Positions 27,789-56,720 of a stretch of DNA of 64,000 bases are shown here, in pieces. Each line of letters begins with the position of its first letter. The stretch's first letter is position 1. The position numbers and the translations under genes were made by a program. This stretch comes from Candidatus Poribacteria bacterium. GTDB lineage: Bacteria; Poribacteria; WGA-4E; PCPOR2b. Under the pieces are notes generated by a model, which saw only the letters and a program-made list of their open reading frames with translations, had not been told where the DNA came from and ran no database searches. The stretch is taken from the NCBI GenBank assembly GCA_965215015.1, contig OZ244042.1, positions 3,424,001-3,488,000 on the forward strand. The letters run 5' to 3'.

Positions 27789-28523
27789 TCACTGTATCGT
27801 TAGCGGCATGACGTTGGACTCAAGCGTTGCTGAACCCCGGTAGGAATCCAATAGAAGATAGGGTCCGTCCTGTTTTCTTGCCTCTTCGTGCTCCAAGCCT
27901 TCAATCTCTCTCTCCAAATTGTGAATCACCCGTTCCTTCATGTCGTCAGGTATGCTAGCGTTTGCTTGTACTATCCGAATTTCGTTCTTTATCTCCTGCA
28001 CCTCTGGCAATTCGGGCGAAAAGATCTCCCGATAGACTTTCAACTCTATAAGTACTTGCAATGTATAGTCTCCCGGTCCTAGTTTGTAATAGGTCCACAA
28101 GTTTTTCAATATTGCCTGCCTTGTTTCCCCTGCCTTGAGTTCGGTTCCTTGGATACAACTTGTCACCTTGTCTTTCCACATCACGGTTTTGGTTTTCGCT
28201 GGGAATGTGATCGGCGGTTTGGGGGCGATAACCTGCCCCAGATTATTTTTGACCACCAATTTCGTGAATGCTCCCCTGGTTGCAACGGTGGCATATGGTA
28301 CAAGTAGATCAAACTTCCCCACCTGAATCGTTATTTCAAGGGGAACTGGTTCGTTAAATGTGTAATTCGGTTTCACCGATGATAAATGAAGCTCTGCAAG
28401 GGAGGCCGGGGTCGCTGCTGCTTCCGGAGCAGGATTGATTTCGGTCTTTCCTGTTGTACCACTCAGGCAGCCAGTGGTATAGAGACTCCATAGGGTTAGG
28501 CATATTAGAAGTCGGGTTGTCAT
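27789..28523 (-). CDS. hypothetical lipoprotein
   Basis: Signal peptide with TTGC lipobox-like motif; AGGAG RBS. Confidence 0.6.
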   Translation of the reverse strand: MTTRLLICLTLWSLYTTGCLSGTTGKTEINPAPEAAATPASLAELHLSSVKPNYTFNEPVPLEITIQVGKFDLLVPYATVATRGAFTKLVVKNNLGQVIAPKPPITFPAKTKTVMWKDKVTSCIQGTELKAGETRQAILKNLWTYYKLGPGDYTLQVLIELKVYREIFSPELPEVQEIKNEIRIVQANASIPDDMKERVIHNLEREIEGLEHEEARKQDGPYLLLDSYRGSATLESNVMPLTIQ

Positions 28524-28817
28524 GGTGTTCTCCTGTTAGTTTGGATGAGAAGAAAAACATCCACAAATCTACGCGAATTTTCGCTAATAGAATTTTTCAG
28601 CCCCCTTTTCATCGGGTCAATGGTTGTAACTGCGGGACGGTTTTCCGAAGGATATACCCGAAATTGTCCTTTCAGTCCCCTTTTCATTGGGTCAATGGTT
28701 GTAACTACAGGCGAGCGTGCTGCGATTAATTACTGGATGAACTTTCAGTCCCCTTTTCATCGGGTCAATGATTGTAACTTGGCGAGTTTGGGTTGACGGC
28801 ACTCGCCAGCCGTAAGA

Positions 28818-29252
28818 TTATTCTTCTATGAAAAAGATATCGGGGTTGACTTTGAGAAAATCACAGATTTTGAGAAAATCCTCAATCTTGATTGTCTCTG
28901 GCGTTTTCATTTTGAAGGACATTGCTGCCTTCGTTAGCCCGATGTGTCGCCCGACCTCAATCTGCTTCCGCGCTTGGACAGCCTCGCGAAAAACGTTTGT
29001 ATCAAGTTTCATTCCGCACCTCGCCTGTGGCGCTGCATTTTCGGGCGTGCCGTCGCCGGATGCGATAAAGCGATCGGGGTTAGCGTTGATAAAATCACAG
29101 ATTTTGAGAAAAACCCCGACCTTGATTTTTTCGGGCGTCCTCATTTTAAAGGACATCGATTCTGGAGTTAGCCCGATATGTCGCGCAACTTCGTACAGCT
29201 TCCGCGGCGACTTCTTGACTGCCCCGCGAAAGCTGGCGGTATCCAGCTTCAT
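28818..29252 (-). CDS. tandem two-domain Cro/XRE-like HTH protein inside the CRISPR array
   Basis: Two about 65-aa copies of MKLDT..F...RHIGLT...MSFKM.TPE.IK...FLKICDF...PD.F; RBS AGGAGG 6 nt before ATG. Confidence 0.8.
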   Translation of the reverse strand: MKLDTASFRGAVKKSPRKLYEVARHIGLTPESMSFKMRTPEKIKVGVFLKICDFINANPDRFIASGDGTPENAAPQARCGMKLDTNVFREAVQARKQIEVGRHIGLTKAAMSFKMKTPETIKIEDFLKICDFLKVNPDIFFIEE

Positions 29253-29509
29253 TCTGCACCTCCTGTGAGCCCGGCCTCCGACAGGAGGTCGGCGAAATGG
29301 GAACTCGGCGGTGGGGGTTCAGGAATGTCAACAGGGTCGTTTCCCTCCACCAGACCGAGGGCGACTAAAATGCTGCCCTTCTCCCGTTCAACGCCGTCTA
29401 CGAAGAGATACAGTTCGCTCGAACGGCGCTTGTATGTCCATTCCCTAAGAATGGCCTGCGGCCCAAGGGCATGGATTGTGGCGCACCCCCCGGATTGCAG
29501 CTCTAACAC
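29249..29509 (-). CDS. hypothetical protein inside the array, probably a 5'-truncated foreign gene
   Basis: Frame opens 1 nt after the repeat; its stop overlaps the HTH start (ATGA coupling). Confidence 0.5.
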   Translation of the reverse strand: MLELQSGGCATIHALGPQAILREWTYKRRSSELYLFVDGVEREKGSILVALGLVEGNDPVDIPEPPPPSSHFADLLSEAGLTGGAE

Positions 29510-31232
29510 GCTTTCAGTCCCCTTTTCATCGGGTCAATGGTTGTAACTAGGCAAAATACTCACTATCAACTTTATCCATTACCTCTTTCAGTCCCCTTTT
29601 CATCGGGTCAATGGTTGTAACAACACGACGGATGGGATCACAACAGTCCAAACAGGACTTTCAGTCCCCTTTTCATCGGGTCAATGGTTGTAACATCGAA
29701 CGCAAGATACGAGAGATCTTTGAAAGCGAACTTTCAGTCCCCTTTTCATCGGGTCAATGGTTGTAACTTCTGCGATACAATCGTTGCAGGGCGACGTTTC
29801 GGCTTTCAGTCCCCTTTTCATCGGGTCAATGGTTGTAACTTATCGAATGCGGGTTACGCGGGGACTCAGGTGGCGTCTTTCAGTCCCCTTTTCATCGGGT
29901 CAATGGTTGTAACTCGGAGACTGGGAATGGAAGTACAACACTGAATGTAGCGCTTTCAGTCCCCTTTTCATCGGGTCAATGGTTGTAACTGGGTTCTGGG
30001 GGAGAGAATGGATGTTGACGAGCTGTCTTTCAGTCCCCTTTTCATCGGGTCAATGGTTGTAACTAATGCAGCTACGATTGATCAAGGTGGTCAATCGTAT
30101 CTTTCAGTCCCCTTTTCATCGGGTCAATGGTTGTAACTAAAAGTCCAAGGCTTCACGGACGAAGAACGGGCGCCTTTCAGTCCCCTTTTCATCGGGTCAA
30201 TGGTTGTAACACAAACCAGTCCACGAAATAGACGCCATCGCCTGCTTTCAGTCCCCTTTTCATCGGGTCAATGGTTGTAACCAAACGCCGAGCGTCGGGG
30301 CAATCGCATCCGCTTGTCCTTTCAGTCCCCTTTTCATCGGGTCAATGGTTGTAACTCGCTTGACGACGGTTCATACGACCATCCGCCCACGCTTTCAGTC
30401 CCCTTTTCATCGGGTCAATGGTTGTAACGTTTTCGACCCTCGCTTACCACCCCGAGCCGTCAAGCTTTCAGTCCCCTTTTCATCGGGTCAATGGTTGTAA
30501 CCATCTCAAATCTCCTTTTGCCCTTGAGGGCGATTGTGCTTTCAGTCCCCTTTTCATCGGGTCAATGGTTGTAACCTTGAACCACCGACGGAGGTGAGAC
30601 GGCGGAGCGTGCTTTCAGTCCCCTTTTCATCGGGTCAATGGTTGTAACTGGGGAGGACGAGGACAGCGTCCTCAAGGCCGTCACTTTCAGTCCCCTTTTC
30701 ATCGGGTCAATGGTTGTAACTGAAAATTGCACTGGTATGCGACGCCCGAAAAGATCTTTCAGTCCCCTTTTCATCGGGTCAATGGTTGTAACATAGCAGC
30801 GTGAATCAGATCAGACAAAGTCGTCCTCTCTTTCAGTCCCCTTTTCATCGGGTCAATGGTTGTAACTGCTAGGCAACGAGTTCATCGCCAAGAAGTCCGG
30901 GACTTTCAGTCCCCTTTTCATCGGGTCAATGGTTGTAACTAACTTTCATTGCTGTTCTCCGTTCCTCTTAAAAGCTTTCAGTCCCCTTTTCATCGGGTCA
31001 ATGGTTGTAACCTGGAGAGCAAGAGTGTCTCGGAAACGGGTGAAGCGCTTTCAGTCCCCTTTTCATCGGGTCAATGGTTGTAACTGTTGATGAACTTGAC
31101 GGCAAACGCCCGTACATCGTCTTTCAGTCCCCTTTTCATCGGGTCAATGGTTGTAACTTCTATCAGTGCAGCCTTTTGGGCTTGGATAATAGAGACTTTC
31201 AGTCCCCTTTTCATCGGGTCAATGGTTGTAAC

Positions 31233-31400
31233 CGATTACGGGCAGCACCCATGGATCACTCCAGAACGCATGAAATATCTGTATTTGTGAAGTATATTCT
31301 CTATCATCACATGAAACGCCTCCACATTCAAGTAAAAAGTGTATATCTCCAGCGCGGCTTGTGTTCATCGCCATCCGTGGGGGTATGCCTGTCGCTTTCG
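31233..31400 (-). promoter_or_regulatory. CRISPR leader (extent approximate)
   Basis: AT-richer non-coding DNA between the first repeat and cas4. Confidence 0.55.
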
Positions 31401-31675
31401 CAAATCCCTTTTCTGTGGTTTTGTCCGTCCATTCGATCGTGGAGATCAGGGGGAGTCGGTCGCAAATCCGTCTCCCTGCTCATTGTAGCAATGGTTGAAA
31501 TACGGGCAAGCACAAGGCTTGCCCCTACGGAGGACATTAATCCCTTTTGTGTTGGATGGCGGTTGGAACGCTTTACGGGTAGATTTGATACGAAATCAGG
31601 AACGCGGATCTACGTTCTCTATTTTTTTTCGCAAATCGCCCTATCTTTTCCTCAGAAACTCAATTTGCGATTTCT

Positions 31676-32248
31676 TCACAACACATCGGCACAGAATCGA
31701 CGAAATTCGCACTCGACGCATTTTCCGCGCTGTGGTGTCGGTGGGGGCATCCGTTCGTCTGAGAGTATACTCCTTATCTGCTGGATGGCGTGACGGGTCT
31801 TGCGCCGAAGTGTCTCTGAAATTGGAACTGCTGTGATGCGCTGTGTGGGGATTCGATAGATAAACCCTTGAGACACTAATTGACCGAGACATTCCTCCAC
31901 CATCAGCGCGTAGGCTGTCAACTGGTATTTCGCGTTCAGGTTGAGCCTCTGGGTTGTGGATTTAAACTCGACTGGGAATGCTTCATCTTTGGTCTGGATG
32001 AGTAGGTCGAGCACACCGCTCAATCCGAGGGACTCGGCATGTAGTGAGATGTGGAATTTACGGCTGCCAGCCTCAAGCCCATAGCGGGCGAGGGTTCGAC
32101 GCCGCTCTAGGACACTCAACACCTCGTGTTGGACTGCGCCGATTTGCATCGGATGCGTTGTTGGACGTGTCACAGGGGTGTAGTAGGTGTGGTAGACCAC
32201 TCGTGGGCAGTAGAAGTATTGTTTGATGTCGCTGACGCGTATGTTCAT
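31676..32248 (-). CDS. cas4: CRISPR-associated exonuclease Cas4
   Basis: YCPR, D..PVEFK, QLTAYA, C..CEFRRFC Fe-S motif. Confidence 0.95.
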   Translation of the reverse strand: MNIRVSDIKQYFYCPRVVYHTYYTPVTRPTTHPMQIGAVQHEVLSVLERRRTLARYGLEAGSRKFHISLHAESLGLSGVLDLLIQTKDEAFPVEFKSTTQRLNLNAKYQLTAYALMVEECLGQLVSQGFIYRIPTQRITAVPISETLRRKTRHAIQQIRSILSDERMPPPTPQRGKCVECEFRRFCADVL

Positions 32249-32374
32249 TTTTGGCTCCTTATAATAAAAACAAGGTGCAGAGGACGAAGAGAGACTGCAC
32301 GCGCAATGAATTGCGCTACTACGAACTGGGATTATAATAAATACAATCTGTTGTACGTGTTCTTAGCATGAGTG

Positions 32375-32626
32375 TCATTCTCCAGTCTCCTCAATAACGG
32401 TTCGTTTGTCGAAGTCTTTCGCGCAGACGCTGAGGACTTCGATCTTCCCTTCCGCTTTGCCGAGTTGTTCGGTCAGTTTTTCCTCTAACGCCCGCCTGCG
32501 TGTGGTATTGATGTCGCCGAGGAATGCGCTATATTGGATGCGTTTTAAGCCGTAATCGAGGCAGACATCGGCGATTTTTTTGCGGATGCGGTCTTTAACA
32601 ATGTCGTAGATGACGTAGGTGTGCAT
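32375..32626 (-). CDS. cas2: CRISPR-associated endonuclease Cas2
   Basis: VIYDI...R.KIA..CLDYGL.RIQYSAF. Confidence 0.96.
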   Translation of the reverse strand: MHTYVIYDIVKDRIRKKIADVCLDYGLKRIQYSAFLGDINTTRRRALEEKLTEQLGKAEGKIEVLSVCAKDFDKRTVIEETGE

Positions 32627-32786
32627 AATTATTGTCTAAATCGCGGATTAAGCGGAGGACACGGATTGGGAAACGAATCCCGCGATGCGCTTAGATGGCA
32701 ATTTGGGTTAATAGTGTAGAAGGGGTTAGAAACCGAGTTTTGCAGAGACGGGTGGGGAAACCCCGCCCCGATGGTTTCTAGGTTGT

Positions 32787-33896
32787 TTACCATGTGGAGG
32801 TGAAGGGGTGATAATCCCGTTCGCGGCGTAGGCACATCGCTAGATGACGGGCTTGGATTTGGATAATGTTGCACAGTTTTTGTTCCTTTCGCTCGAATCG
32901 CTCGGTCTCTTGAAGCCTCGCTAGGACGCGGTCGGCAAGGGCGCGTCGGGTCCCTTGGCTGAGGCGGCGTTGTGTTGGGGTTTCGTCCTCGGTATCGGGT
33001 TTTGAGGATTGGTGCGCGGCTTTGGCGGCGTCCCTGTCGGGATCTTCCCACTCCACTTTGAATCGCTTGTTGATCATCACAAACACCACTCGATCCACGA
33101 TCGGTTGGCGGAACTCTTCGATAAAGTCGAGCACTAATGAGGGTTTACCGGGGCGGTCAACGTGTAGGAATCCGGCGAACGGTTCAAGCCCAGCCAATGT
33201 GAGTGCGCTCCAGACCTGTGAGTAGAGTATGCCGTAGCCGTAGTTGAGCAGTGCGTTGACGTCATCGACCACGCCTTGATGGTTTCGGGTGGTGAAGCGT
33301 CCGGCGGGCAGCAGCCGTTGGACGCATTCCCAGTAGAGTGCGCCGGCGCGTCCTTCAAGGTTGAGTAGTGTCCCCCGTGCGCTGTCAATCGGCGGTTCAT
33401 CGGCTGCCGCAACGGTTGGGGATTGGACAGACCGAATCTCGTCAATAAGTCCTTCGATCTTGGTCAGCCGTTCGATCAATTCGACGTATTTTTTGGGTGC
33501 CCGTTTCTTGCGGTATTTGCCGAAGTAGCGGACGAGGTTGATTTGGTTCTTCAGTTTGCCTGCGGTGAATTGTTTGGCGATTTCTAAGCCGCGCTCGTCG
33601 TGGTAGGCGGCGAGCTGCTCACGTCGGGAAATCACGGTCGCTGTCAGCGATGGGCTGTTGAGTTTCGCATAGGGTTTGCCGTTGAAACTGAGGAATGAGA
33701 TTTCGATGCCGCGCTCGGTGCACGCTTCAATAAGGTCTGAGGACATGCTGACGCCGCGTGAGGCGATGACGATCTGGTCGAGGTCCATCAGAGGGTGCTC
33801 CTCTTTTTCGCGGTCTTTGTCTCGGTATCGGACGCTGACGCGTTCGGAGCGTTTGCCGAGGTATGTGCCGTAGTCGGAGATGATGAGTTGTTCCAC
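32787..33896 (-). CDS. cas1: CRISPR-associated endonuclease Cas1
   Basis: EGRAGALYW, NALLNYGY, GFLH, SLVLDFIEEFR. Confidence 0.97.
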   Translation of the reverse strand: MEQLIISDYGTYLGKRSERVSVRYRDKDREKEEHPLMDLDQIVIASRGVSMSSDLIEACTERGIEISFLSFNGKPYAKLNSPSLTATVISRREQLAAYHDERGLEIAKQFTAGKLKNQINLVRYFGKYRKKRAPKKYVELIERLTKIEGLIDEIRSVQSPTVAAADEPPIDSARGTLLNLEGRAGALYWECVQRLLPAGRFTTRNHQGVVDDVNALLNYGYGILYSQVWSALTLAGLEPFAGFLHVDRPGKPSLVLDFIEEFRQPIVDRVVFVMINKRFKVEWEDPDRDAAKAAHQSSKPDTEDETPTQRRLSQGTRRALADRVLARLQETERFERKEQKLCNIIQIQARHLAMCLRRERDYHPFTSTW

Positions 33897-34574: not shown

Positions 34575-35108
34575 TCACCCGCCTCCTTCTAACTCGATAT
34601 CAGTATGGAACGCGCGGCTACTCGCGTTCCATACATCTTTTTTGCCCCCGGCGTCTCTAGCCCATTGATAGATAGAACTATGCGCCTTTTCGATGCTATC
34701 TAACGACGTTAGCAGCCAGTAAGCCCAATTCTGTCTGGGGAGCGCAGCAGCTAACATGAGGTTGATAGGATATTCGCTTCTCTCACCAGAATCGCGGAGG
34801 TCGTCATGAAAGATAAATACTTCTTTTTCGAGTATAGCCGCAGCGCCTAGTTCAAACATCACGCCCGGGTCAGGTGGTATCCCGTTGACGACAGCAAAAA
34901 TCCCGTCGGCTTCTTTGATGTCGAGAACGTTCTTCATGGCAAGTTCGTAAGCCCACTCCTCGGACTTGCCGATGATATGATTGTTCCGTTGAAACGGTTC
35001 CCAAACTTCAAGCCCTATCGCTTCAAGACGCTTGACGAATTCGGGGAGTACGAGTTGCCGTTCGACCGTTGAGAAGCCAAAGTCGTTGGCTAAATAGATG
35101 GTCTTCAT
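34575..35108 (-). CDS. nucleoside 2-deoxyribosyltransferase family protein
   Basis: IYLA, EVWEPF, DGIFAVVNG.PPDPGVMFELG with catalytic Glu. Confidence 0.88.
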   Translation of the reverse strand: MKTIYLANDFGFSTVERQLVLPEFVKRLEAIGLEVWEPFQRNNHIIGKSEEWAYELAMKNVLDIKEADGIFAVVNGIPPDPGVMFELGAAAILEKEVFIFHDDLRDSGERSEYPINLMLAAALPRQNWAYWLLTSLDSIEKAHSSIYQWARDAGGKKDVWNASSRAFHTDIELEGGG

Positions 35109-35122
35109 TCAAACCTCCGCGG

Positions 35123-35548
35123 TCAACCTGAAAGCACGATGATTATGGATTCTGCTTGGAATGTCTCGAGTAAGAATCTCTCACTATCGAGAATTAACAG
35201 CGCTCCTTCCGTTACTGAGACTAAAACTACAGGGAGAACAGTCGAATCCATAAGAAAGTAAACTTTGCCCGCCCGGTAATAAAAAGCCCGGAAGTTTTCA
35301 ACCGTAATACGATCGTCGTCTATGCGAATTACTCCATTATCATCGTAGTCAGCAGCAGTGAGAGGATGTTCGATTACGATCACACTATCTGTCGAGCCAT
35401 CGAGCCCCTGCTCCCCTTTCGGACCCGGCAGCCCCTGTGGGCCCATTGACCCCATTGGCCCTGTAAGCCCTTGCGGCCCCGTGGGCCCCGGCGGCCCCTC
35501 GCATCCGATGGAAATAACTAATAGTAAAACACACAACATCTCTTTCAT
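35123..35548 (-). CDS. collagen-like lipoprotein, copy 1
   Basis: Lipobox SIGC, 12 Gly-X-Y triplets, about 85-aa C-terminal head. Confidence 0.88.
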
Positions 35549-35656
35549 TGCTTTATCCTTTCATGGTGCGCCCGAACAGGCACTTAAACAAGTTTTAATT
35601 GAATTGCCTATGTAAATAAATCCATTGATTGCTCTAATCAAAAGCGTTCTACGCGG

Positions 35657-35720
35657 TTGCATGATGCTTGATTTCCCGGCGTTATTAGCACCTGCGAGGA
35701 GCGTTAAAGAGCGGATTGTG
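35657..35720 (-). pseudogene. AAA ATPase fragment (Walker A)
   Basis: IRSLTLLAGANNAGKSSIMQP; short fragment, boundaries approximate. Confidence 0.6.
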
Positions 35721-36103
35721 TAAAAGTACCGCCGATAGCATCTCCTCAACCTGACTGAACCCGAACTGACTCGCCAATTCGGGAACTACTTCCTCGGCTA
35801 ACTCTCGATTTACATCAGAGAGGAAGGCTCGCCTTCCCATCACGTATTCCTGCCATTCGTCAAGTTCTTTACCAACATCATGTGCGAGAACGCTGGTTAA
35901 GAGCACTTGCTCCTCGGACTCCGTCAGTGGGGGTGAGAAAGTATGCTGAAGCAGCGGTAACAATGTGATTAAAGCGTCAATTTCGATAAGTGTATGGTCA
36001 AAATAAGCTTTGCTCAAAATTTCTTCGCTTTGCGATTTTTTTTCTTCCAATCGCGATTGAGCATGAATTCAACAGCCTCTCTTCTGAATGCTTGATAATC
36101 CAT
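35717..36103 (-). pseudogene. truncated CRISPR-type HD nuclease (Cas3''/Cas10d-like N-terminus)
   Basis: GGAGG RBS and ATG at 36103; removing one base from each of two homopolymers gives MDYQAFRREAVEFMLNRDWKKKIAKRRNFEQSLFDHTLIE...AHDVGK...WQEY; ends in a junction with the ATPase fragment. Confidence 0.65.
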
Positions 36104-36417: not shown

Positions 36418-37128
36418 TTAATTTTCGCCGGTAGTAGATGGGGTAACCAATCGTTCATAATCGCTAAAACTACGACTCGATCTGTGCAATCGGTAGGGAA
36501 GCATGGCAAGGAAGGTATGCCGTTCCTTGCCAACACGGATCTTCTTCCCACTGTAGATATCAGCTTGATCGAAACTCATTTTAGCGTTGCAATCATCTAA
36601 GTGTTGTAACTGACTTTCGATGTGCCATGTCTCTGCTTGTTCAACTAGAGATATGAAGTCAGAAGGTAGTGCTTCAACTGATTGGATCGGCGGAAGAAAC
36701 TGGAAGAACCCACCACGTTTCCCAAAGTAAGTAATATTAAGCAGTAGCCGCTGCAACTGTTCTTCCTGTGAATCATCGTGAATTTCAAAGCCCAACCTCA
36801 TTTTGCCAACGAAATGGACATATTCGCGGTAGCCGATGGTTCTCTCGAATCCCTCCTTATCGCTAGAATGAGGCGGCTTGAGGATACGAGTAAATACGTT
36901 GTTGACCAAAGCGCGTTCTGGCAAATGCACTGCTAACGACAAAGTGCGAATCCATTCCCACGCTTGTTTGCCGTAGTTGATTCCTTCTGTACGGAGAGCT
37001 GCATCCAACAAGCCCATCTTTATCGCATAGGGGGTTGGTGTCAACAACGTTTTACCGCCTGACGATGTGGCATTGCTCGGCTTGAGTGAAAAGAAGGTCG
37101 TGGGTTGATAAGTTGCTAAGACCCACAT
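36418..37128 (-). CDS. cas5: type I Cas5
   Basis: FSLKPSNATSSGGKTLLTPTPYAIK, REYV, YFGKRGGF; position after cas7. Confidence 0.85.
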   Translation of the reverse strand: MWVLATYQPTTFFSLKPSNATSSGGKTLLTPTPYAIKMGLLDAALRTEGINYGKQAWEWIRTLSLAVHLPERALVNNVFTRILKPPHSSDKEGFERTIGYREYVHFVGKMRLGFEIHDDSQEEQLQRLLLNITYFGKRGGFFQFLPPIQSVEALPSDFISLVEQAETWHIESQLQHLDDCNAKMSFDQADIYSGKKIRVGKERHTFLAMLPYRLHRSSRSFSDYERLVTPSTTGEN

Positions 37129-37129
37129 T

Positions 37130-38140
37130 TTAAGTGCCTCCGTTATAGTTAATTTTGTAAGGTGCAGTTGTGTTAGCTAGGTTTGCCATAACTTCAGCAT
37201 ACTCGCCTAATGAATCAAATTTGCAGAGTTTAATCGCGCTTGTCTCGATCTGATTGAGTGCGTCTGCGACACGTCTGATTTCGTCCTTGTACTTGTCATT
37301 AAGTGGACTAACTGTAGGTGCGGGCAAAATCTTTGTGCTGAGACTAACAATTCCGTCGAAGTTCACAAGATGAGGGTGCTGAGCACTTCGCATTGCGCCG
37401 TTTGGCTCAACAAAAGTACACAGTAGGCTTTCAATCAGTGTTTTGTATCGTTGATTGCGCTCACTGTCATCAATCGCGTATTTCTGGTTGATATCGTTGA
37501 AACCAAGCCGTGAAACTTCAATGCCTGCTACAACTGCGTAAACCCCTGAATTGGCTGGACGGTGGAAGATATTCTGACCGAGATTGGCACCACTTTCATC
37601 TGTATTATCACCATTATCTGCATTCTGCTGTCCACGATCAGGTACATATTTGACATGAAAGTAGTTGTCGGTCTTAGTCAGCTCTGGTATGCCCACCACC
37701 CAACCGAACTCTACAATTGACTTGCGGGGTGTGGCCTTCTTCTTGGATCGATTTGTAACAAGGATGCCTTCAATGTCATCCATTGCACACATTTCCAACA
37801 TCGTTGTAATCATTTTGTCATCCGGTGTGCTCTGTTCGTAGCTGCTGTCAAAGGTTGAATCGTCGAGAATGCGATTTGCGCTGAACCTTTGGCAACCTGA
37901 ACATAGCTTCAGTCCACTATTTCTGCTCAAGTGGAACAGATGTTCGGCTTGAATGTGTTTGAACATATCACCTGAAATTGCGTTCACGGCAGCGAGTTTA
38001 CCCGCTTGATCATAGATGTTAACCATTCGGGTTGCGATTTGATTTCCTTCACTGCCTTCGTTATTGAGGGAGTGCATATCAATTGTGGCTCTGCCGCAGA
38101 TGGTGAGGGAGTAAAGGGCTTTGCTATCACTCATTGTCAT
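37130..38140 (-). CDS. cas7: Cas7, DevR/Cst2 family (I-A-like)
   Basis: HSLNNEG, ISGDMFKH, PRKSIVEF, IFHRPANSGVYA. Confidence 0.9.
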   Translation of the reverse strand: MTMSDSKALYSLTICGRATIDMHSLNNEGSEGNQIATRMVNIYDQAGKLAAVNAISGDMFKHIQAEHLFHLSRNSGLKLCSGCQRFSANRILDDSTFDSSYEQSTPDDKMITTMLEMCAMDDIEGILVTNRSKKKATPRKSIVEFGWVVGIPELTKTDNYFHVKYVPDRGQQNADNGDNTDESGANLGQNIFHRPANSGVYAVVAGIEVSRLGFNDINQKYAIDDSERNQRYKTLIESLLCTFVEPNGAMRSAQHPHLVNFDGIVSLSTKILPAPTVSPLNDKYKDEIRRVADALNQIETSAIKLCKFDSLGEYAEVMANLANTTAPYKINYNGGT

Positions 38141-38200
38141 TCTCCTTTTCGGTATGAGGGGGTGTGGCGATATTGCTTGTTGGTCTATCTTGTCGAAAGA

Positions 38201-40006
38201 TTAAGAAGGAATATCTCCTGAACTTGTGTCAGTGGTTGTGGTAGTATCAGTTGTTGATACATCATCTCTGCTAGTAGAAGCGTATCCGAACGCCAATAGT
38301 AGATGACAAATTGTTTGAGGACCATGTTCATCAATTAATTGAACAATTTCGGTAATGTCGTCTTCACGGACACTTTTCCGCCAGTGTTGGGCTGAGTTTT
38401 CGGCTACGCTGGCATTTTCGGCGTTGAAAGAGTGAAGAAAATTACCTAACGCCTGAATGAACTCGTCCGGGTAGTTTGCCTTGCGTCGTAATTCTTGACC
38501 AAGTCCATATCGGATGTCATACGGAGGTCTTCCACTTTTTGCCATATATTGCAGCGTCACAGTACTTTGACGGATGGATCTGGCGATGTTTTGAAAGCCT
38601 TCGCTTTTAATAATTGGCGTAAGTTCTTTCTGCTTGCTCATCAGTAGACTCCTCAAATTGGTTGCGCTCAACGGCTTAACCCAGAAGTTTTCCTTCACTA
38701 AGGCGTTGAGCAGATAGTTTGGATATTGTGATGTGAATTCAAAGAACGCTGTAAAATCGTTTGCGGAAAGAAAATTTCGATAGTGCTGGAGTAGTTGGTA
38801 ACCCTCACTCCGTTCCTCCTCTAAACTTTTTACGATGTTGAGGTGTTCCTCTATCACCCCCTGGTACACTTGCACATCATTTCTATCTTTAATGTTCATC
38901 CAGCTGGGTAGATTGATAAAGGAAAGGTTCATTACGGCGGCCGAGTTGCCGAGATCCTTATAAAATGCGGTGTGTAAGCCCGCTACAAAGTTTTCAGGGG
39001 CACGCCCCTGCAACTCCACAGCTAAGGAAGCACTTGCTTCTGCTTCACAGTGTCGTAGAAAGCACTTTGTGTAGCTGAGTGCAGCAAAGATGTCCGATTT
39101 AATTGCGTGTCGGTTCCCTACCACATCCCTGAATCTTGCGAAAATTGTGTTGTGCTCATCCAATGTGATATTGACCGGGGCTAGTGCAAAGGTCTTCCGA
39201 TCCTTCGGGGGCTCGCCCTGTTTTACTAACACGAAGCGGGGTACTGCACAATGGTAGAAACCAACCATCTTCAGATATTCGCATAGCCAGAAGCTGTTTA
39301 CATTCTTCATTGACAAGCTGCTTGCTTTGGTGGCGTTCTGTCCTTTGCCTGTGCTTGGGTTGAACACTTGGAGCATATTCAAGCGATCTTTACCGATAAA
39401 CTGTTTCTCTTTTTTGAGTTTTTTCCATGCTTGCTCACAGGTCGCAACTGGGTTTGGAATTTTAGCATGGAGTGCCAGCAACAGCTTGAGTAACTCCGCG
39501 AAGTGCTCACGGGTTTCATACCAATTGGTGACGGCTGAATTGTAAGCACTAATCCCTGACATCATGTTGATTTTCTGCCAAATGCGATAATTGGGGTCTG
39601 GTTCACTTTCTCTCAAAACTGTAAGTGCTTCGCTGTCGTCGGCATTCTGCTTTAGTGTATCACCTAGAGTCCTGCGTAATTCGTTGTAGTCATCGTAACG
39701 CTCTTTTTCTCCGTTGTAATCTATGTTGTAAATATCCTCCGGCATTGTTTCACTGTTCTTTGGTGTTTTAATAAAAGGGATAGGGGCAAAGGAGCTTTTT
39801 AAATTCTCAACCCATTCTGCTTGTAACGCAGGAATGAGTTCAATCGCATAGGTTGTCCCCCTATCCAAAATCTTGATAGTATGGGACTCATATTCGCCGA
39901 GGGTACGTTGCAAAAGTTGGTGTAAGATAGTTGCTAATCCATAAGCGGAACAGACATCAGCAAATGTGCCTGTTTGTTTGTCAACGAAATAGGTCTGTTG
40001 GTACAT
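38201..40006 (-). CDS. cas8: putative Cas8 large subunit with C-terminal Cas11-like domain
   Basis: 601 aa between cas3 and cas7; NPSTGKGQN motif; helical C-terminus. Assigned mainly by position. Confidence 0.72.
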   Translation of the reverse strand: MYQQTYFVDKQTGTFADVCSAYGLATILHQLLQRTLGEYESHTIKILDRGTTYAIELIPALQAEWVENLKSSFAPIPFIKTPKNSETMPEDIYNIDYNGEKERYDDYNELRRTLGDTLKQNADDSEALTVLRESEPDPNYRIWQKINMMSGISAYNSAVTNWYETREHFAELLKLLLALHAKIPNPVATCEQAWKKLKKEKQFIGKDRLNMLQVFNPSTGKGQNATKASSLSMKNVNSFWLCEYLKMVGFYHCAVPRFVLVKQGEPPKDRKTFALAPVNITLDEHNTIFARFRDVVGNRHAIKSDIFAALSYTKCFLRHCEAEASASLAVELQGRAPENFVAGLHTAFYKDLGNSAAVMNLSFINLPSWMNIKDRNDVQVYQGVIEEHLNIVKSLEEERSEGYQLLQHYRNFLSANDFTAFFEFTSQYPNYLLNALVKENFWVKPLSATNLRSLLMSKQKELTPIIKSEGFQNIARSIRQSTVTLQYMAKSGRPPYDIRYGLGQELRRKANYPDEFIQALGNFLHSFNAENASVAENSAQHWRKSVREDDITEIVQLIDEHGPQTICHLLLAFGYASTSRDDVSTTDTTTTTDTSSGDIPS

Positions 40007-40019
40007 CAGTTCTCACTCC

Positions 40020-42437
40020 TTATATACTGATTTGTGAAGTTGCTTCTTGGTCAGCGAGTCGTAAGGCTCGGACAATTAAAAAATAAGTCAACAGCGAAGG
40101 TGTGTTGCTTGGGGACACAAACATACCGGTTAATGACCGGGGTTGATCTTGTGTACAAATCTTTTCTAAGTGGGTTTGAGCCACCTGCCCCGCCTCCCCA
40201 ATCATTTGTAAAGTTGTTTCGATTGAAGTTTGGAAATCGGGATGGAGTTCGTAAGTCTGGTATTGATCGGCTTTCGGCGCATGATGACGCGCAATTGCAG
40301 TAAGACTAGCTTTGAATAAAATCTCTTGATCGTAGAAAGTAGCCCCTAGTAAAGGTGCGACGGCGCGCATACTCTCAACAGCATGTGGGGGCCGTTTAAC
40401 AGGGAAATGTTTCTCCTTTTCGCGTACTGCGGAGTTACCTCGGTTGTAATCGGTATGGGCCGCCATATAGTTTGGATCAATAGGTTTATCAATCAACCGT
40501 TGCCATTCATGTGCCCACCGCTGCCAACCACACGTCAGTTTTCCGATATCGTGCAGAGCAATGCAGAGTCGAATCGTCTGATCAATTGCGCCCTCTTTTG
40601 TTTCCAACCTCTGCTCAAGTTGGGAGGCGGCGTAACTTAGTTCAGCCTCTAGCCCAGCGTCGTATACGTTTAGCAAGCGTTCGATGTGTTCCGTGTATGT
40701 CTCACGGCGATAACCTGTGCTGAGCTCACGTTCTCGGGGGGCTTCGCCCTCAGAGATGCTTAATGCACAAGGCTTTTCCCCCGTTTCAAGCTGAAAGCCT
40801 ATTTTGTCATCGTATGCGACCAATTGTGGATGCACAATAAACAGTGGCGAAATCCCTAAAGTTTCCTTCTCCTTTACTTCGCGCCAGTTGTAGGTGATTG
40901 TAGTACGGCTGTTTGGTGAATCGTCCTCGGCTTCAATAGGATACTTTAGCACCCAACCCAGTCCTTGCTTTTGTGCCTCTTCTTGAAGTTTATCCCACGC
41001 TCCAAAGAGTGTGCCGCGATAGAGATTGAAGCCTTCAACTCGAAACGGTTTATCAAGTGTCTCAGGTTTGTCATGCACGAGAAGCGTTCGGGAATCATTC
41101 TTACGAATCAACTCACGAGCAAGAGCCAATTCTTGGTTAGATATTGCCCTCTCCATTTTATCGCGCTTATCGCTGCTCGCAAGTTGCTCTAATATCTTCT
41201 CATCGCTTTCGCGGTGGACTTCGTTGATAACCTCTTGCTCTGCCGTAAAGTTCAACACCCTTCCGTTTCGTTGCTGGAATGCAGCTATTGTCAGTTCACA
41301 AGTTTTCTTTTCGTAGGGGGCGTAATTTAGTGAGCCATCAGGCCGAGATGGCACGGGATAGATTCGCACTGTGCCTGATTCATTTTTGAACCTAGCACAC
41401 CGTCCGGCCCGTTGAAAAATTGCGCTTGCTGGTGCCAGTTCTGTGTGCAAATTTTCACACGTAATGTCTAAGCCAACCTCGATCACCTGTGTAGCAACCA
41501 AAATCACGTTATCGGGGCCCACACCTCGTTTGAAACGCTTGCGTATCATATCCTCTTTAGCTTTACGATCTTCCTTCAGAAAGCGAGAGTGCAATAGCAA
41601 CACTTCCGTTGTGCCACGCTGTGGGTTATCCCGCAACGACTGATACATCTTCTGTGCCCGTGCCACCGTATTGCAAATGACAATACTGCGTTGCTGGTGT
41701 TGAGTGATAACGGCGTCTGTGCTGCACAAAAGTGTTTGATTCTCAATCTTATATTCGCGGCGTTTTCCACACTGAGAAGGAATTTGTTTTAGTTCGTTCT
41801 CAGTCACCTGAACAACTTCGGCGTTAAAATATTCGCTCAAACGGTTGAGTAGCGGTTCCGAAAAAGTCGCAGTCATCAGTAAAAACGGTGTGATACCATT
41901 GAGCATTTTCAGCATTTCAATCACAGTTCCCAACGAAGTATCAGGATCGAATAAGTGAAATTCATCAAAGACTAGATATGCGCCAACAACTGCTCCCGCG
42001 TTGACATTACCCTGACGTAACCCTAGCGCATAAGGGATGTTAAGAAAACTACTCAAGACCTGATCGATTGTCGTAAAAATCAAGTCGCTACGAAACTGAC
42101 GGTCCTCCTGATTTTCACCCGTCTGAATGTTTGCCGTGAGAGTCTGTTGTCTTCCTATTGGCGATTCTTGGAAGTCGGTGTGAAAATTCTTTGCCAAAAC
42201 CCGCATTGGCGTGGCGTAAAGCAACTTCCGGGGAAATGGTTTGTCTTCCTGCTGGGCTAGCAGGAACGGAAACAACGCGGCTTTCGTCTTGCCCGCCCCC
42301 GTTGGTGCTTGTAAAATCACATTGCGCCTGTTTAACAGATGCTGTGCTACCTTGCGTTGAAATGTAAAGGGAATGAATTCAAACATTCTCTGAAACTGGT
42401 TATCCCAATACCGTTTATCTTTATCAAAATTTGACAT
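40020..42437 (-). CDS. cas3: Cas3 helicase with C-terminal HD nuclease
   Basis: APTGAGKT, DEFH, LHSRF, ATQVIEVGLDI, QRAGRCAR; C-terminal EH...LHDIGK...H...HH. Confidence 0.95.
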   Translation of the reverse strand: MSNFDKDKRYWDNQFQRMFEFIPFTFQRKVAQHLLNRRNVILQAPTGAGKTKAALFPFLLAQQEDKPFPRKLLYATPMRVLAKNFHTDFQESPIGRQQTLTANIQTGENQEDRQFRSDLIFTTIDQVLSSFLNIPYALGLRQGNVNAGAVVGAYLVFDEFHLFDPDTSLGTVIEMLKMLNGITPFLLMTATFSEPLLNRLSEYFNAEVVQVTENELKQIPSQCGKRREYKIENQTLLCSTDAVITQHQQRSIVICNTVARAQKMYQSLRDNPQRGTTEVLLLHSRFLKEDRKAKEDMIRKRFKRGVGPDNVILVATQVIEVGLDITCENLHTELAPASAIFQRAGRCARFKNESGTVRIYPVPSRPDGSLNYAPYEKKTCELTIAAFQQRNGRVLNFTAEQEVINEVHRESDEKILEQLASSDKRDKMERAISNQELALARELIRKNDSRTLLVHDKPETLDKPFRVEGFNLYRGTLFGAWDKLQEEAQKQGLGWVLKYPIEAEDDSPNSRTTITYNWREVKEKETLGISPLFIVHPQLVAYDDKIGFQLETGEKPCALSISEGEAPRERELSTGYRRETYTEHIERLLNVYDAGLEAELSYAASQLEQRLETKEGAIDQTIRLCIALHDIGKLTCGWQRWAHEWQRLIDKPIDPNYMAAHTDYNRGNSAVREKEKHFPVKRPPHAVESMRAVAPLLGATFYDQEILFKASLTAIARHHAPKADQYQTYELHPDFQTSIETTLQMIGEAGQVAQTHLEKICTQDQPRSLTGMFVSPSNTPSLLTYFLIVRALRLADQEATSQISI

Positions 42438-42783
42438 TGTAAAACCTCCTTGAGTTTGATACGTGATTTATAATTCAAGTTGCTACTTGTCGTCCCGTTG
42501 GGGCTTTGGGTTGTAGTGACTCGTTCTTGATATACACATCGCGCTCCTCTAGAGCGCGAAGATTGGACCTATTACTATTCTATAGACATCTTGCTCCATA
42601 TGACCCTGTATGATGAAAGCCCATTGCTTGGTACAGCGATCTCAGCAAGTTGCATTGCCCGTTGCTAAATCATTGCGAAAGGCAGAGTCCTCCAGTTTTA
42701 ATAGAAATATTGATGGATTTTCAATAACCAACAACTTGGGTTAAAATGGTAGCCACAAAGGCTACCTCCATTATCTCTACGCC

Positions 42784-43722
42784 TTATCCAACCTTATACT
42801 TCCCCAACCCAAACGTTGCATTTTTGCCGACGTGTAGAAACGCACCCAACGCCACAAATGGCAGGAACGCCGCCAAATCGCCCGCATAGGTTACGCTGCC
42901 GACTAGCCCGCCGAGTTGCATTTTCTGATTCTGCCGCGACGAATAGCGCGTCCAATCGTGCCAACGTAATTTGCTCTGGACCGTTTGGACGGTTTCTGCC
43001 TGTGCGATGAGTCCCTTAAAATCGAGATTCAGCGATTCGCCGCAGTGGAAATATGCCAAGGCGGAGATGCGTCCAATTAAACGTCGCCAGAAGAGGTGGA
43101 ACGGGAGTTTATCCGTTATTTGCCCCTTGTGTGTGACCCGCGTGGGGGTGAGTAGGTGGACGGTCAATGAATCGGTTGGCAAAGATTCTACTTGCCGCTG
43201 GATTTCGTCGAAACAGAGTGCGTTATTGCGGTTGTGTGCCATCTGGGTGTCGCTGTCGTAGATTGATTCCCCACTATCGGTCAGGACTTGGGTCAGTTGG
43301 AAACGGCCGCGCCCCTTGCCGATGCCGATCTCACCCAAATCGCGGAAGCTGACAAGAAAATAGGGGAGGTAGTCGATGGCACGGCCGATAAGGGTGAGAC
43401 GGAACGCAAACGAATTGCCTCGGCGGTATTCACCTCGTGTGTTCAACGGATCGATGACAAAGGGTCTTGGCACATCGCCGTATGTCCGCAGTTGTTGCGC
43501 GCCCTCAAATGGGGCGGTCTCGAAGATGTACGGGTATGGGCAGACCGTTTTAAGGGTGCAGTCCCGGCAGTCAATGGGCCCTTGGGTGCAGACCATTTTT
43601 CGGAAGGCGTGTCCGAATCCGCCGCGGAGTGTGGAGCCGGCGTAGGGGGGCATCAGAATGGTTGAGAGTGCTGTTAGGATCACATGGTAGCGTGCGAATC
43701 GGAAGTTTTGAAGTGGATTCAT
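42784..43722 (-). CDS. cas6: Cas6 pre-crRNA processing endoribonuclease
   Basis: GSTLRGGFG, Cys cluster, C-terminal HVGKNATFGLG Gly loop. Confidence 0.95.
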   Translation of the reverse strand: MNPLQNFRFARYHVILTALSTILMPPYAGSTLRGGFGHAFRKMVCTQGPIDCRDCTLKTVCPYPYIFETAPFEGAQQLRTYGDVPRPFVIDPLNTRGEYRRGNSFAFRLTLIGRAIDYLPYFLVSFRDLGEIGIGKGRGRFQLTQVLTDSGESIYDSDTQMAHNRNNALCFDEIQRQVESLPTDSLTVHLLTPTRVTHKGQITDKLPFHLFWRRLIGRISALAYFHCGESLNLDFKGLIAQAETVQTVQSKLRWHDWTRYSSRQNQKMQLGGLVGSVTYAGDLAAFLPFVALGAFLHVGKNATFGLGKYKVG

Positions 43723-43738: not shown

Positions 43739-43831
43739 TACATTGTCCGCTTTTCATCGCGTCATTGGGAGATGATTGATTCTCTTTTTAATAAAAAAAA
43801 CAATATTTATTTCAGTCCCCTTTTCATCGGG
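43739..43831 (-). CRISPR. degenerate one-spacer mini-array upstream of cas6
   Basis: 22/22 repeat match at 43810-43831; 21/24 match at 43745-43768; 33-nt spacer-sized gap at 43776-43808. Confidence 0.75.
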
Positions 43832-44053
43832 GCAAAATTTAAGTGAGGGGTGCTCATAATAATTGTCTGAATCGCAGATAGAGTCGATGGTACAGAAAGC
43901 ACGGATACAGATATGGGGCGCAGGTTGTTCAGGCATATCGTGCGGGGTAATCATAAAAAGGGACTGTGGCACGATACAGGTATCATAAAGCAGGTAGTAC
44001 AAGCTGCCGCTCGACTGTTGAGAAACCGAAGTCGTTCGCTAAATAGATTGTCT

Positions 44054-56307: not shown

Positions 56308-56350
56308 ACCCGATGAAAAGGGGACTGAAATTATGAAAAAGGGACTGAAA
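56308..56350 (+). repeat. orphan partial CRISPR repeats
   Basis: ACCCGATGAAAAGGGGACTGAAA (23/23 to the array repeat), then ATGAAAAAGGGACTGAAA (17/18). Confidence 0.8.
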
Positions 56351-56720
56351 AACGCAGATTTCGCAGATAAAAACAGCGGTTCATGTAAAGAAGTAGGACT
56401 TACGCAGTTGAACGCTCCATGCCTAAAGGACCGGATATGCATCCCGATCCTTTAGGTGTAGGAGCACGTCAAAAAATGGTGTTATTGAAAGGCGGAACCG
56501 CTATTGGCATTAATAACATTGGTTTTGAACTGTTCAATATACAGTAGTAGGCACGTTCCGCTGTGCTGTTACCCCTCTCAAATCCCGAATACCCCACGGT
56601 TCTTTTCCCCTAAGCCCCTCCACCGGGTTGCGTCCCCGCTTGCGGGGGGTGGGGGGCCTTAGCGGGAGGAAGGGGGGGACGGCATACGGTGTGTGCCTAC
56701 TACTAGCAACTTGAGTCATT

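Follow-up and report, generated by a model that had tools for sequence, protein, structure and literature searches.

CRISPR arrays are viewed as lists of ~36-bp memories, and long intervals between their repeats are usually discarded by array finders or ascribed to insertion sequence (IS) elements. Long DNA can be integrated by the Cas1 homologues of casposons, which carry their own Cas1 together with terminal inverted repeats, and viruses are known to carry mini-arrays. Moreover, the acr-aca operons of phages (anti-CRISPR and anti-CRISPR-associated genes) consist of a small anti-defence gene followed by a gene for a helix-turn-helix (HTH) repressor. The accessible part of Kupczok et al. 2015 (PMC4524480) describes 'long spacers' that result from IS or transposon insertion in arrays, and Tn7-like transposons are reported to target CRISPR repeats in the accessible part of PMC11837452. 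Here, we report on a stretch of 64,000 nucleotides from a Candidatus Poribacteria bacterium (assembly GCA_965215015.1, contig OZ244042.1, positions 3,424,001 to 3,488,000 of the forward strand), in the following referred to as the window, in which one spacer slot of a type I CRISPR array holds an insert of 732 bp. The insert is confirmed and uncommon. The long interval described here consists of transposon-free, apparently phage-derived DNA with an intact regulator gene and is bounded by full repeats. The assignment of the 732 bp to a contiguous fragment of a phage genome, which is foreign, non-transposon and non-native, is well supported.

The minus strand of the window encodes a type I (I-A-like) CRISPR-Cas locus with an array of 27 repeats of 37 nucleotides each, extending from 31233 down to 28594. 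Of the 27 repeats, the 24 on the leader side do not differ from one another; repeats 25, 26 and 27, at the low-coordinate end, bear one, one and two changes, respectively. Three features suggest that transcription of the array proceeds along the minus strand and that its trailer is at 28594: the cas genes are located upstream on this strand, the repeats with changes are found at the end remote from them, and the repeat in this reading terminates in GGGGACTGAAAG (last letters GAAAG). The main array (29511-31233, minus strand) comprises repeats 24 to 1 and 23 spacers of 34-39 bp. It is followed by the insert (28779-29510), by repeat 25 (28742-28778), which forms the trailer-side border of the insert and carries one change (T instead of C at position 8 of the repeat), by repeat 26 (28669-28705, one change) and by repeat 27, the last repeat at the trailer (28594-28630, two changes from the consensus), all on the same strand. 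Among the 26 inter-repeat intervals, 25 measure 34-39 bp and one, slot 24 of 26 between repeats 24 and 25, measures 732 bp. A preliminary description of this DNA, made from the sequence alone, had placed a 732-bp interval exactly between two full repeats, with all other spacers at 34-39 bp, and these coordinates are exact. In length, the interval thus differs from the canonical spacers (732 bp versus 34-39 bp), and the repeats on either side of it are complete.

The possibility that the insert is an assembly chimera is addressed by the assembly itself and by contigs from public sequencing runs. The host genome is a single 5.94-Mb contig, in which the 732 bp are present once. In run X1, which is possibly the source sample, a contig of 799 nucleotides covers 28741-29539, that is, the insert flanked by 38 and 29 letters of repeat, at a depth of 358 as compared to 362 for the contig of the flanking chromosome. 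The junction with repeat 25 is likewise crossed without difference in two other studies (X5, 28618-28831; X7, 28748-28935), and a fourth run, X6, contains 28805-29034. The junction with repeat 24 is covered by X1 only, with 29 repeat letters, just under the 31-letter bridging rule; runs X5-X7, which are of low depth, do not reach it. No joint that skips the insert is listed among the contigs of these runs; contigs cannot show that an insert-free allele is absent. Crossing of the junctions had been proposed as a check in the preliminary description, and contigs do cross the insert borders, in three studies for repeat 25 and in X1 for repeat 24. Nothing beyond the general difficulty of array assembly speaks for a chimera, and against the single genome contig, the X1 contig at chromosomal depth and the exact repeat 25 junction in two further studies, it is excluded for practical purposes.

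Two frames, both co-oriented with the array, occupy most of the insert. The first (29249-29509, minus strand) comprises 86 codons; read from 29509 to 29249, it lacks an ATG and is open back into the repeat. An exhaustive phmmer search with this frame returned 27 other proteins at E values up to 0.001. Among them, 23 are 157-190 amino acids in length and are aligned by their C-terminal halves only, three are short (83-121 amino acids) and one comprises 467 amino acids. Because the frame corresponds to the C-terminal half in these 23 of 27 matches, the gene is cut at about mid-length and broken at the repeat boundary, which bears out its earlier designation as 'probably 5′-truncated'. The homology to the family begins by codon 2-4, so that at most ~10 nucleotides at the side of repeat 24 are of unaccounted origin.

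The family of ~160 amino acids to which the truncated frame belongs has no match in Pfam, PHROGs or PADLOC. Its AlphaFold model is all-beta, with a predicted local distance difference test (pLDDT) score of 90; this confident model yielded no significant match in the PDB and a best match in BFVD at a template modelling (TM) score of 0.35. No usable match for the family was obtained in the ESM Atlas. A profile of the family detects it in one of 176 genomes of the phylum, namely its own, and in none of the 175 genomes of other species. Otherwise, the family was found on metagenome contigs only, at 16 loci. Three of the four loci longer than 6 kb carry PHROG-annotated phage genes nearby: a helicase, a PAPS reductase and a methyltransferase (L041), Erf, a RecE-like exonuclease and a tail fibre (L036), and an integrase next to the ~160-amino acid gene, i.e., near a phage end (L031). 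At the fourth locus, L040, one protein was checked against PHROGs, and no match was obtained. Searches with the full-length member P0004 in cultured phages, plasmids and genome contigs, and with the members P0031 and P0011 in IMG/VR, likewise gave no match.

The second gene (28818-29252, minus strand) is intact, encodes a tandem Cro/C1-type HTH protein of 144 amino acids, is preceded by an AGGAGG ribosome-binding site and overlaps the 86-codon frame at its start by ATGA. A complete tandem Cro/XRE-like gene with precisely this coupling, ribosome-binding site and orientation had been described before, and all of these features were confirmed. The second half of the protein matches Pfam PF13443 (HTH_26) with 32 bits versus a cut-off of 22 (E value 1.5e-7), and by this curated profile cut-off the predicted protein is a member of the Cro/C1 (XRE-type) family. 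The first half is a duplicate of the second, as the gene harbors an internal duplication of 143 nucleotides with 78% DNA identity between the halves. In 5.8 billion clusters the only close relative is one metagenome protein, which has 144 amino acids and 75% identity; since it lacks the internal Met, the tandem form is a single protein. ESM look-alikes fall into Cro/C1 and DUF739 clusters, many of them viral, and serve as a lead only.

In 100 related genomes only one relative of the HTH protein was detected, a single-domain protein of 79 amino acids (33% identity, E value 4e-8), the gene of which lies in the congener G014, on a contig of 40 kb, and adjoins the gene for a major head protein. 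This separate contig (G014:C2; 40,275 bp; L011, L025, L077, L078) is likely a phage or phage-plasmid of the genus. Searches with the HTH protein in genome, viral and metagenome contigs revealed no source, a tblastn search in phages gave one weak partial match (E value 7e-3), a search for short relatives found none, and no match was obtained among PDB sequences and solved structures. The AlphaFold model of the protein, with a mean pLDDT of 50 from an alignment of two sequences, is too poor for a fold search, and a hairpin over the ribosome-binding site folds no better than shuffled sequences (z -0.72) and was not used as evidence.

A phage origin of the insert is indicated because the ~160-amino acid family resides at loci with phage genes, the relative of the HTH protein lies beside a major head protein, and the DNA of the insert has no match in 60 relatives. 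The content had been suggested to be a phage or plasmid fragment; as single-copy DNA missing from all 60 relatives, and with a gene family that otherwise occurs on contigs with phage genes, it is indeed foreign and phage-like. The search of phage, plasmid and viral databases that had been recommended was performed: the source of the 732 bp was found neither by blastn in phages and plasmids nor in IMG/VR, metagenome or genome contigs, and the insert hairpin as an exact pattern had no match in IMG/VR. A comparison of 218 spacers of seven arrays with the insert, the phage-like contig of G014 and the metagenome loci gave nothing beyond chance matches of 17 nucleotides, and an Rfam scan of the window detected no family.

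The ends of the insert do not resemble those of a mobile element. Terminal inverted repeats, direct repeats and target duplications are lacking, and the open reading frames (ORFs) are confined to the truncated phage gene and the HTH gene, with no transposase. Insertion of an IS, a transposon or a miniature inverted-repeat transposable element (MITE) was ruled out on the absence of a transposase gene, terminal inverted repeats and a target-site duplication; the same absences had been noted initially and hold upon comparison of the ends of the single-copy insert. The 39 nucleotides between the HTH stop codon and repeat 25 contain an inverted repeat, TGGCGAGT-N13-ACTCGCCA, with arms of 8 bp (28780-28808), located 10 nucleotides past the stop codon and present as first described. 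As no T-run follows, it is not a canonical terminator. The fold of this 3′ region compared to shuffled sequences (z -1.71) was not used as evidence. An element of the IS200/IS605 type was considered, since the repeat has a TTAC-like site adjacent to the hairpin, and dropped, as neither tnpA nor tnpB is present; the geometry of the hairpin is, we assume, also wrong for this family.

The array was compared with its counterparts at the same locus in the genus, six syntenic arrays in total (G000, which is this genome, G002, G003, G011, G015 and G018). The order of peptidyl-prolyl isomerase, aceE-like gene, 244-amino acid lipoprotein gene, array and cas4 is shared at 65-92% protein identity; in the window, the conserved downstream neighbour that marks the locus, the lipoprotein-like gene, is located at 27789-28523 on the minus strand. 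Inter-repeat segments longer than 300 bp occur in four of the six arrays (G000, G018, G011 and G003), i.e., in three of the five related species examined, and always in the last slots: 24 of 26 in G000, 18 of 20 in G018, 22-24 of 24 in G011 and 54-55 of 58 in G003. These segments are mutually unrelated and of mixed origin, native as well as foreign, and some of the junctions in relatives fall inside repeats. In the five gene-sized segments of relatives (730 bp in G018, 513 and 1672 bp in G003, 1007 and 718 bp in G011), long ORFs are co-oriented with the array.

In G018 the layout is nearly the same as in the window, namely a main array, 730 bp and three decayed repeats; these 730 bp bear no similarity to the insert. 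They encode one lipoprotein-like product in a complete ORF and include the trailer terminator, a hairpin located after the last repeat in G002 and G015. In G003 a segment of 513 bp comprises a 5′-truncated WCX-domain gene (PF25583, 1.7e-12) that abuts a full repeat, and its end is formed by this same terminator together with a partial (3′) repeat. Beyond it lie two paralogous lipoprotein genes and a mini-array in which one repeat-spacer-repeat unit from the main array is present a second time, such that a variant repeat, a 21-nucleotide spacer and a repeat are found on both sides of a 2.2-kb stretch (L024, 3360-6000). In G011 a segment of 1007 bp (L074, 10166-11172) carries a terminase-small-like gene (phrog_2538, 4.6e-15) between two repeats, of which the downstream 'repeat' keeps only its 3′ 24 nucleotides. 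A segment of 718 bp in the same array contains an unknown ORF, and an interval of 307 bp represents a normal spacer and a repeat split by a MITE-like element of ~250 bp (L074, 12002-12290), which has terminal inverted repeats of 13 bp and an 8-bp duplication, ATTTACTT, inside the CRISPR repeat. G002 has no long segment, and G015 has only a gap of 206 nucleotides before a decayed repeat. In four relatives, G018, G003, G002 and G015 (L076, L024, L072 and L075), the array is followed by this conserved terminator-like hairpin (AAACCGAGTTTT...AAAACTCGGTTT). It is missing from the window including the insert, where repeat 27 is 70 nucleotides away from the lipoprotein gene. Taken together, the trailer ends at this locus are structurally plastic and acquire DNA of both native and foreign origin in more than one way.

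This comparison bears directly on the notion that the locus consists of two separate arrays with ordinary ancestral chromosomal DNA between them. Such an arrangement is suggested by G018 and G003, where native-looking genes and the conserved trailer terminator are located between a main and a small distal array, above all by G018 with its 730 bp and three subsequent repeats. However, the DNA of the insert occurs in none of the 60 relatives and its gene family in none of the 175 other genomes of the phylum, and the relative of the HTH gene is found only on a phage-like contig. Moreover, the insert lacks the trailer terminator and resembles none of the segments that occupy this position in G018, G011 and G003, repeats 25-27 bear variants of their own genome, and the distal spacers are not shared with G018. 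The comparison of the array in relatives, which the preliminary description had called for, thus shows that the insert is not conserved inter-array chromosomal DNA. The two-array explanation is largely refuted, and we consider it very improbable.

With about even confidence, we favour the interpretation that phage DNA was captured without the Cas machinery, or was left behind by a deletion, and was tolerated at the trailer. The insert would derive from one non-canonical event independent of Cas1, either the capture of a phage fragment, illegitimately or in the course of break repair, or, in an alternative form, the integration of a larger phage, most of which was then deleted. It may have survived at the trailer because only two old spacers are cut off there, and it would now be passenger DNA. 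A non-Cas route is suggested because the long segments in the genus lie strictly at the trailer end, have mixed contents and, in relatives, have some junctions within repeats. Likewise, the strict trailer position fits tolerance at a site where few useful spacers lie downstream, rather than integration at the leader followed by drift.

Several observations weigh against such a tolerated capture, most of all the precise fit of the insert. The phage-derived sequence fills the slot almost exactly, with at most ~10 nucleotides to spare at repeat 24, and the hairpin ends 1 nucleotide from repeat 25. Insertion into a 36-bp spacer should leave remnants of ~36 nucleotides, and random breakpoints would demand a coincidence of roughly one in seven or worse. 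To regard the hairpin as the remnant of an old spacer would be unusual, since only 5 of the 214 spacers of the genus contain an inverted repeat of at least 8 bp. In addition, both bordering repeats are complete (repeat 24 is perfect, repeat 25 has one change), the insert terminates in A, a feature shared by 16 of the 25 normal spacers of the array, and, with the source phage not found, the true ends of the fragment are unreadable.

The same features are what might be expected if Cas1-Cas2, together with Cas4, had inserted a prespacer of excessive length at the repeat that was leader-proximal at the time, duplicating this repeat in the manner of a casposon insertion, whereupon 23 later acquisitions moved the insert trailerward. 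The complete repeats on both sides, the slot filled with phage DNA to within ~10 nucleotides and 1 nucleotide, respectively, and the terminal A would be accounted for. Likewise, intact cas1, cas2 and cas4 genes adjoin the leader, and the 24 upstream repeats are identical and the three downstream repeats altered, as if the insert marks an old time point. However, 732 bp is ~20 times the ruler of 34-39 bp, to which all 25 other spacers of this array and 214 spacers in the genus adhere. The long segments of the relatives, all at the trailer end, partly native and in some cases joined within repeats, also conflict with entry at the leader and subsequent drift, which should scatter them. Furthermore, the insert is targeted by none of the spacers in the seven arrays, and the literature searches made here brought up no report of kilobase-scale spacers made by Cas1-Cas2 or of spacer slots that contain a fragment of a phage gene. 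In the accessible part of the published tabulation of spacers of at least 100 nucleotides, most resemble transposons (PMC4524480). Hence, we regard integration by Cas1-Cas2 as unlikely. The preliminary description had proposed that Cas1-Cas2 captured the fragment; this proposal is unsupported, as the heterogeneous long segments at the trailer ends of related arrays are better explained by tolerated rearrangement.

Exact repeat boundaries would also result from recombination between repeats, if a donor element, such as a mini-array of a phage or plasmid or the array of a relative, had brought in a repeat-fragment-repeat unit, or if the repeat had served a phage as attachment site and most of this phage was subsequently lost by deletion. 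Repeat 25 differs from the consensus at a position 8 nucleotides from the insert, where it has the base found in the repeats of G015 and G019, as a hybrid repeat might, and at one metagenome locus the ~160-amino acid gene is located next to an integrase near a phage end. In contrast, no match to the repeat is present in the 40-kb contig of G014 or in the 16 metagenome loci, and the conserved 23 nucleotides of the repeat have no exact match in IMG/VR. Repeats 25-27 share two genome-specific base variants, so that a hybrid of the G015 type needs a crossover within 2 nucleotides. Moreover, the question of how the truncated gene came to abut a repeat merely shifts to the donor. We therefore judge recombination between repeats distinctly unlikely.

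Irrespective of how the insert arrived, it may be expressed together with the array. Cas6 cuts at repeats and consequently releases RNAs that are bounded by them. As the insert is co-oriented with the array, no terminator is predicted, and Cas6 is encoded, a Cas6-bounded RNA of ~770 nucleotides as part of the precursor CRISPR RNA (pre-crRNA) is a fair expectation. A search for terminator-like sites on the minus strand gave none from the leader to the end of the insert, and the change in repeat 25 lies outside the hairpin-handle part of the repeat. The insert is thus probably transcribed within the pre-crRNA and excised by Cas6, and the HTH gene may or may not be translated. A role of its product as a domesticated phage repressor or as an Aca-like regulator is possible.

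A more far-reaching proposal is that the adaptation machinery of the genus occasionally integrates gene-sized DNA, that the array serves as an expression site by means of the leader promoter and release by Cas6, and that the captured HTH protein confers immunity to the donor phage. Such immunity would take the form of a superinfection-type repression or of the repression of an anti-defence operon of the phage ('anti-anti-CRISPR'). A wider use of Cas6-framed mRNAs would fit the terminase-small-like gene between repeats of G011, the co-oriented ORFs of the long segments and the solitary Cas6-hairpin units beside genes elsewhere in this genome. Nevertheless, because the long segments of the relatives are heterogeneous and all located at the trailer, they point to tolerated rearrangement rather than to a capture platform, and we consider the proposal quite improbable. 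The gene-capture and expression platform envisaged initially thus gains no support from trailer segments that are of mixed origin in four arrays. The other option named in the preliminary description, a rare aberrant acquisition devoid of function, is fully plausible.

If the Cas-dependent route were true, arrays could capture and express genes, and adaptive immunity would be linked to gene acquisition in a new way. If the insert is junk that is tolerated where the array is under the least selection, which we think more likely, it documents the decay and rearrangement of the trailer and warns against taking such intervals for two arrays or for assembly errors.

The remainder of the locus comprises the leader and the cas genes. 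The leader region between cas4 and repeat 1 (31234-31675, minus strand) contains a promoter-like site at 31509-31482. It is followed by the adaptation genes (31676-33896, minus strand), comprising cas4 (31676-32248), cas2 (32375-32626) and cas1 (32787-33896), with PADLOC matches of 3.6e-42, 3.8e-26 and 1.9e-85, respectively. The effector genes (36418-43722, minus strand) comprise cas5a (36418-37128; 5.6e-62), cas7/Csa2 (37130-38140; 3.9e-58), a cas8a-like gene (38201-40006; 5.9e-67), cas3 (40020-42437; 3.3e-67) and cas6 (42784-43722; 2.2e-108). An I-A-like set of Cas8a, Cas5a, Cas7/Csa2, Cas3, Cas6 and Cas1-Cas2-Cas4 is thereby present, with the subtype assigned by profile names alone. Between the two modules, at 34575-36050 of the window, lie three unrelated genes, for a nucleoside 2-deoxyribosyltransferase, a collagen-repeat protein and an ORF of 121 amino acids.

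Sequences derived from the repeat also occur outside the array. At 43808-43833 of the window, on the minus strand and ~86 nucleotides upstream of the cas6 start, a lone 3′ part of the repeat is found, which consists of a short stem-loop and ACTGAAAT; ~46 nucleotides after this unit, still in the upstream region of the cas operon, follows a decayed second copy. We take these units to resemble the repeat-like regulatory mini-arrays found near cas genes. With at most two mismatches in 19 nucleotides, seven solitary repeat-derived units were detected at five sites of the genome, as compared to none in a reversed control. Their positions include 56308-56351 of the window (plus strand), G000:C1:3255156, 846209/846262 and 2389051. 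The unit at G000:C1:3255156 has the same variant base as repeat 25 and is flanked by a direct repeat of ~28 nucleotides. In addition, spacers 6 and 14, counted from the leader, match the own chromosome, over 31 nucleotides with two mismatches (G000:C1:1173754-1173784) and over 27 nucleotides exactly (1348150-1348176), respectively; the matched sites may be prophage remnants or self-targets.

Compared to the systems described so far, the insert resembles the long spacers caused by IS elements in that at least 100 nucleotides of non-spacer DNA lie between repeats of an otherwise regular array, as described in the accessible part of PMC4524480. Unlike them, it lacks a transposase as well as terminal inverted repeats and a target duplication, and contains a broken phage gene and a regulator gene instead; by contrast, the MITE insertion in G011 is of the known kind. 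With the Tn7-like elements of PMC11837452, as far as its accessible part describes them, the insert shares the position of mobile DNA inside an array, and it differs from them in the lack of transposition genes and ends.

The arrangement of a gene from phage-like contigs translationally coupled to a downstream HTH gene is reminiscent of acr-aca operons. However, the upstream gene is broken and has no match in Pfam, PHROGs and PADLOC or among PDB and BFVD folds, and the HTH protein matches no solved structure. An acr-aca operon was accordingly set aside on the missing family or fold match of the upstream gene and the missing PDB match of the HTH protein, a weak test, as it was made without an Acr/Aca library. 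A toxin-antitoxin pair of HigBA-like order was likewise rejected: the upstream gene has no Pfam or PADLOC match, and its relatives are all-beta proteins of ~160 amino acids on phage-like contigs.

The products of Cas1-Cas2 and casposon integration have in common with the insert that foreign DNA is placed between two complete copies of a repeat; the insert differs from Cas1-Cas2 spacers in being ~20 times the spacer length of the system and in that neither a source phage nor a PAM could be assigned to it. Finally, the split arrays of G018 and G003 occupy the same locus and the same trailer position, in G018 with 730 bp and three subsequent repeats. In these arrays, however, the intervening DNA is native-looking, with a duplicated repeat-spacer unit in relatives, whereas the window has foreign DNA between the repeats, and its distal repeats are of one lineage with the rest of the array.

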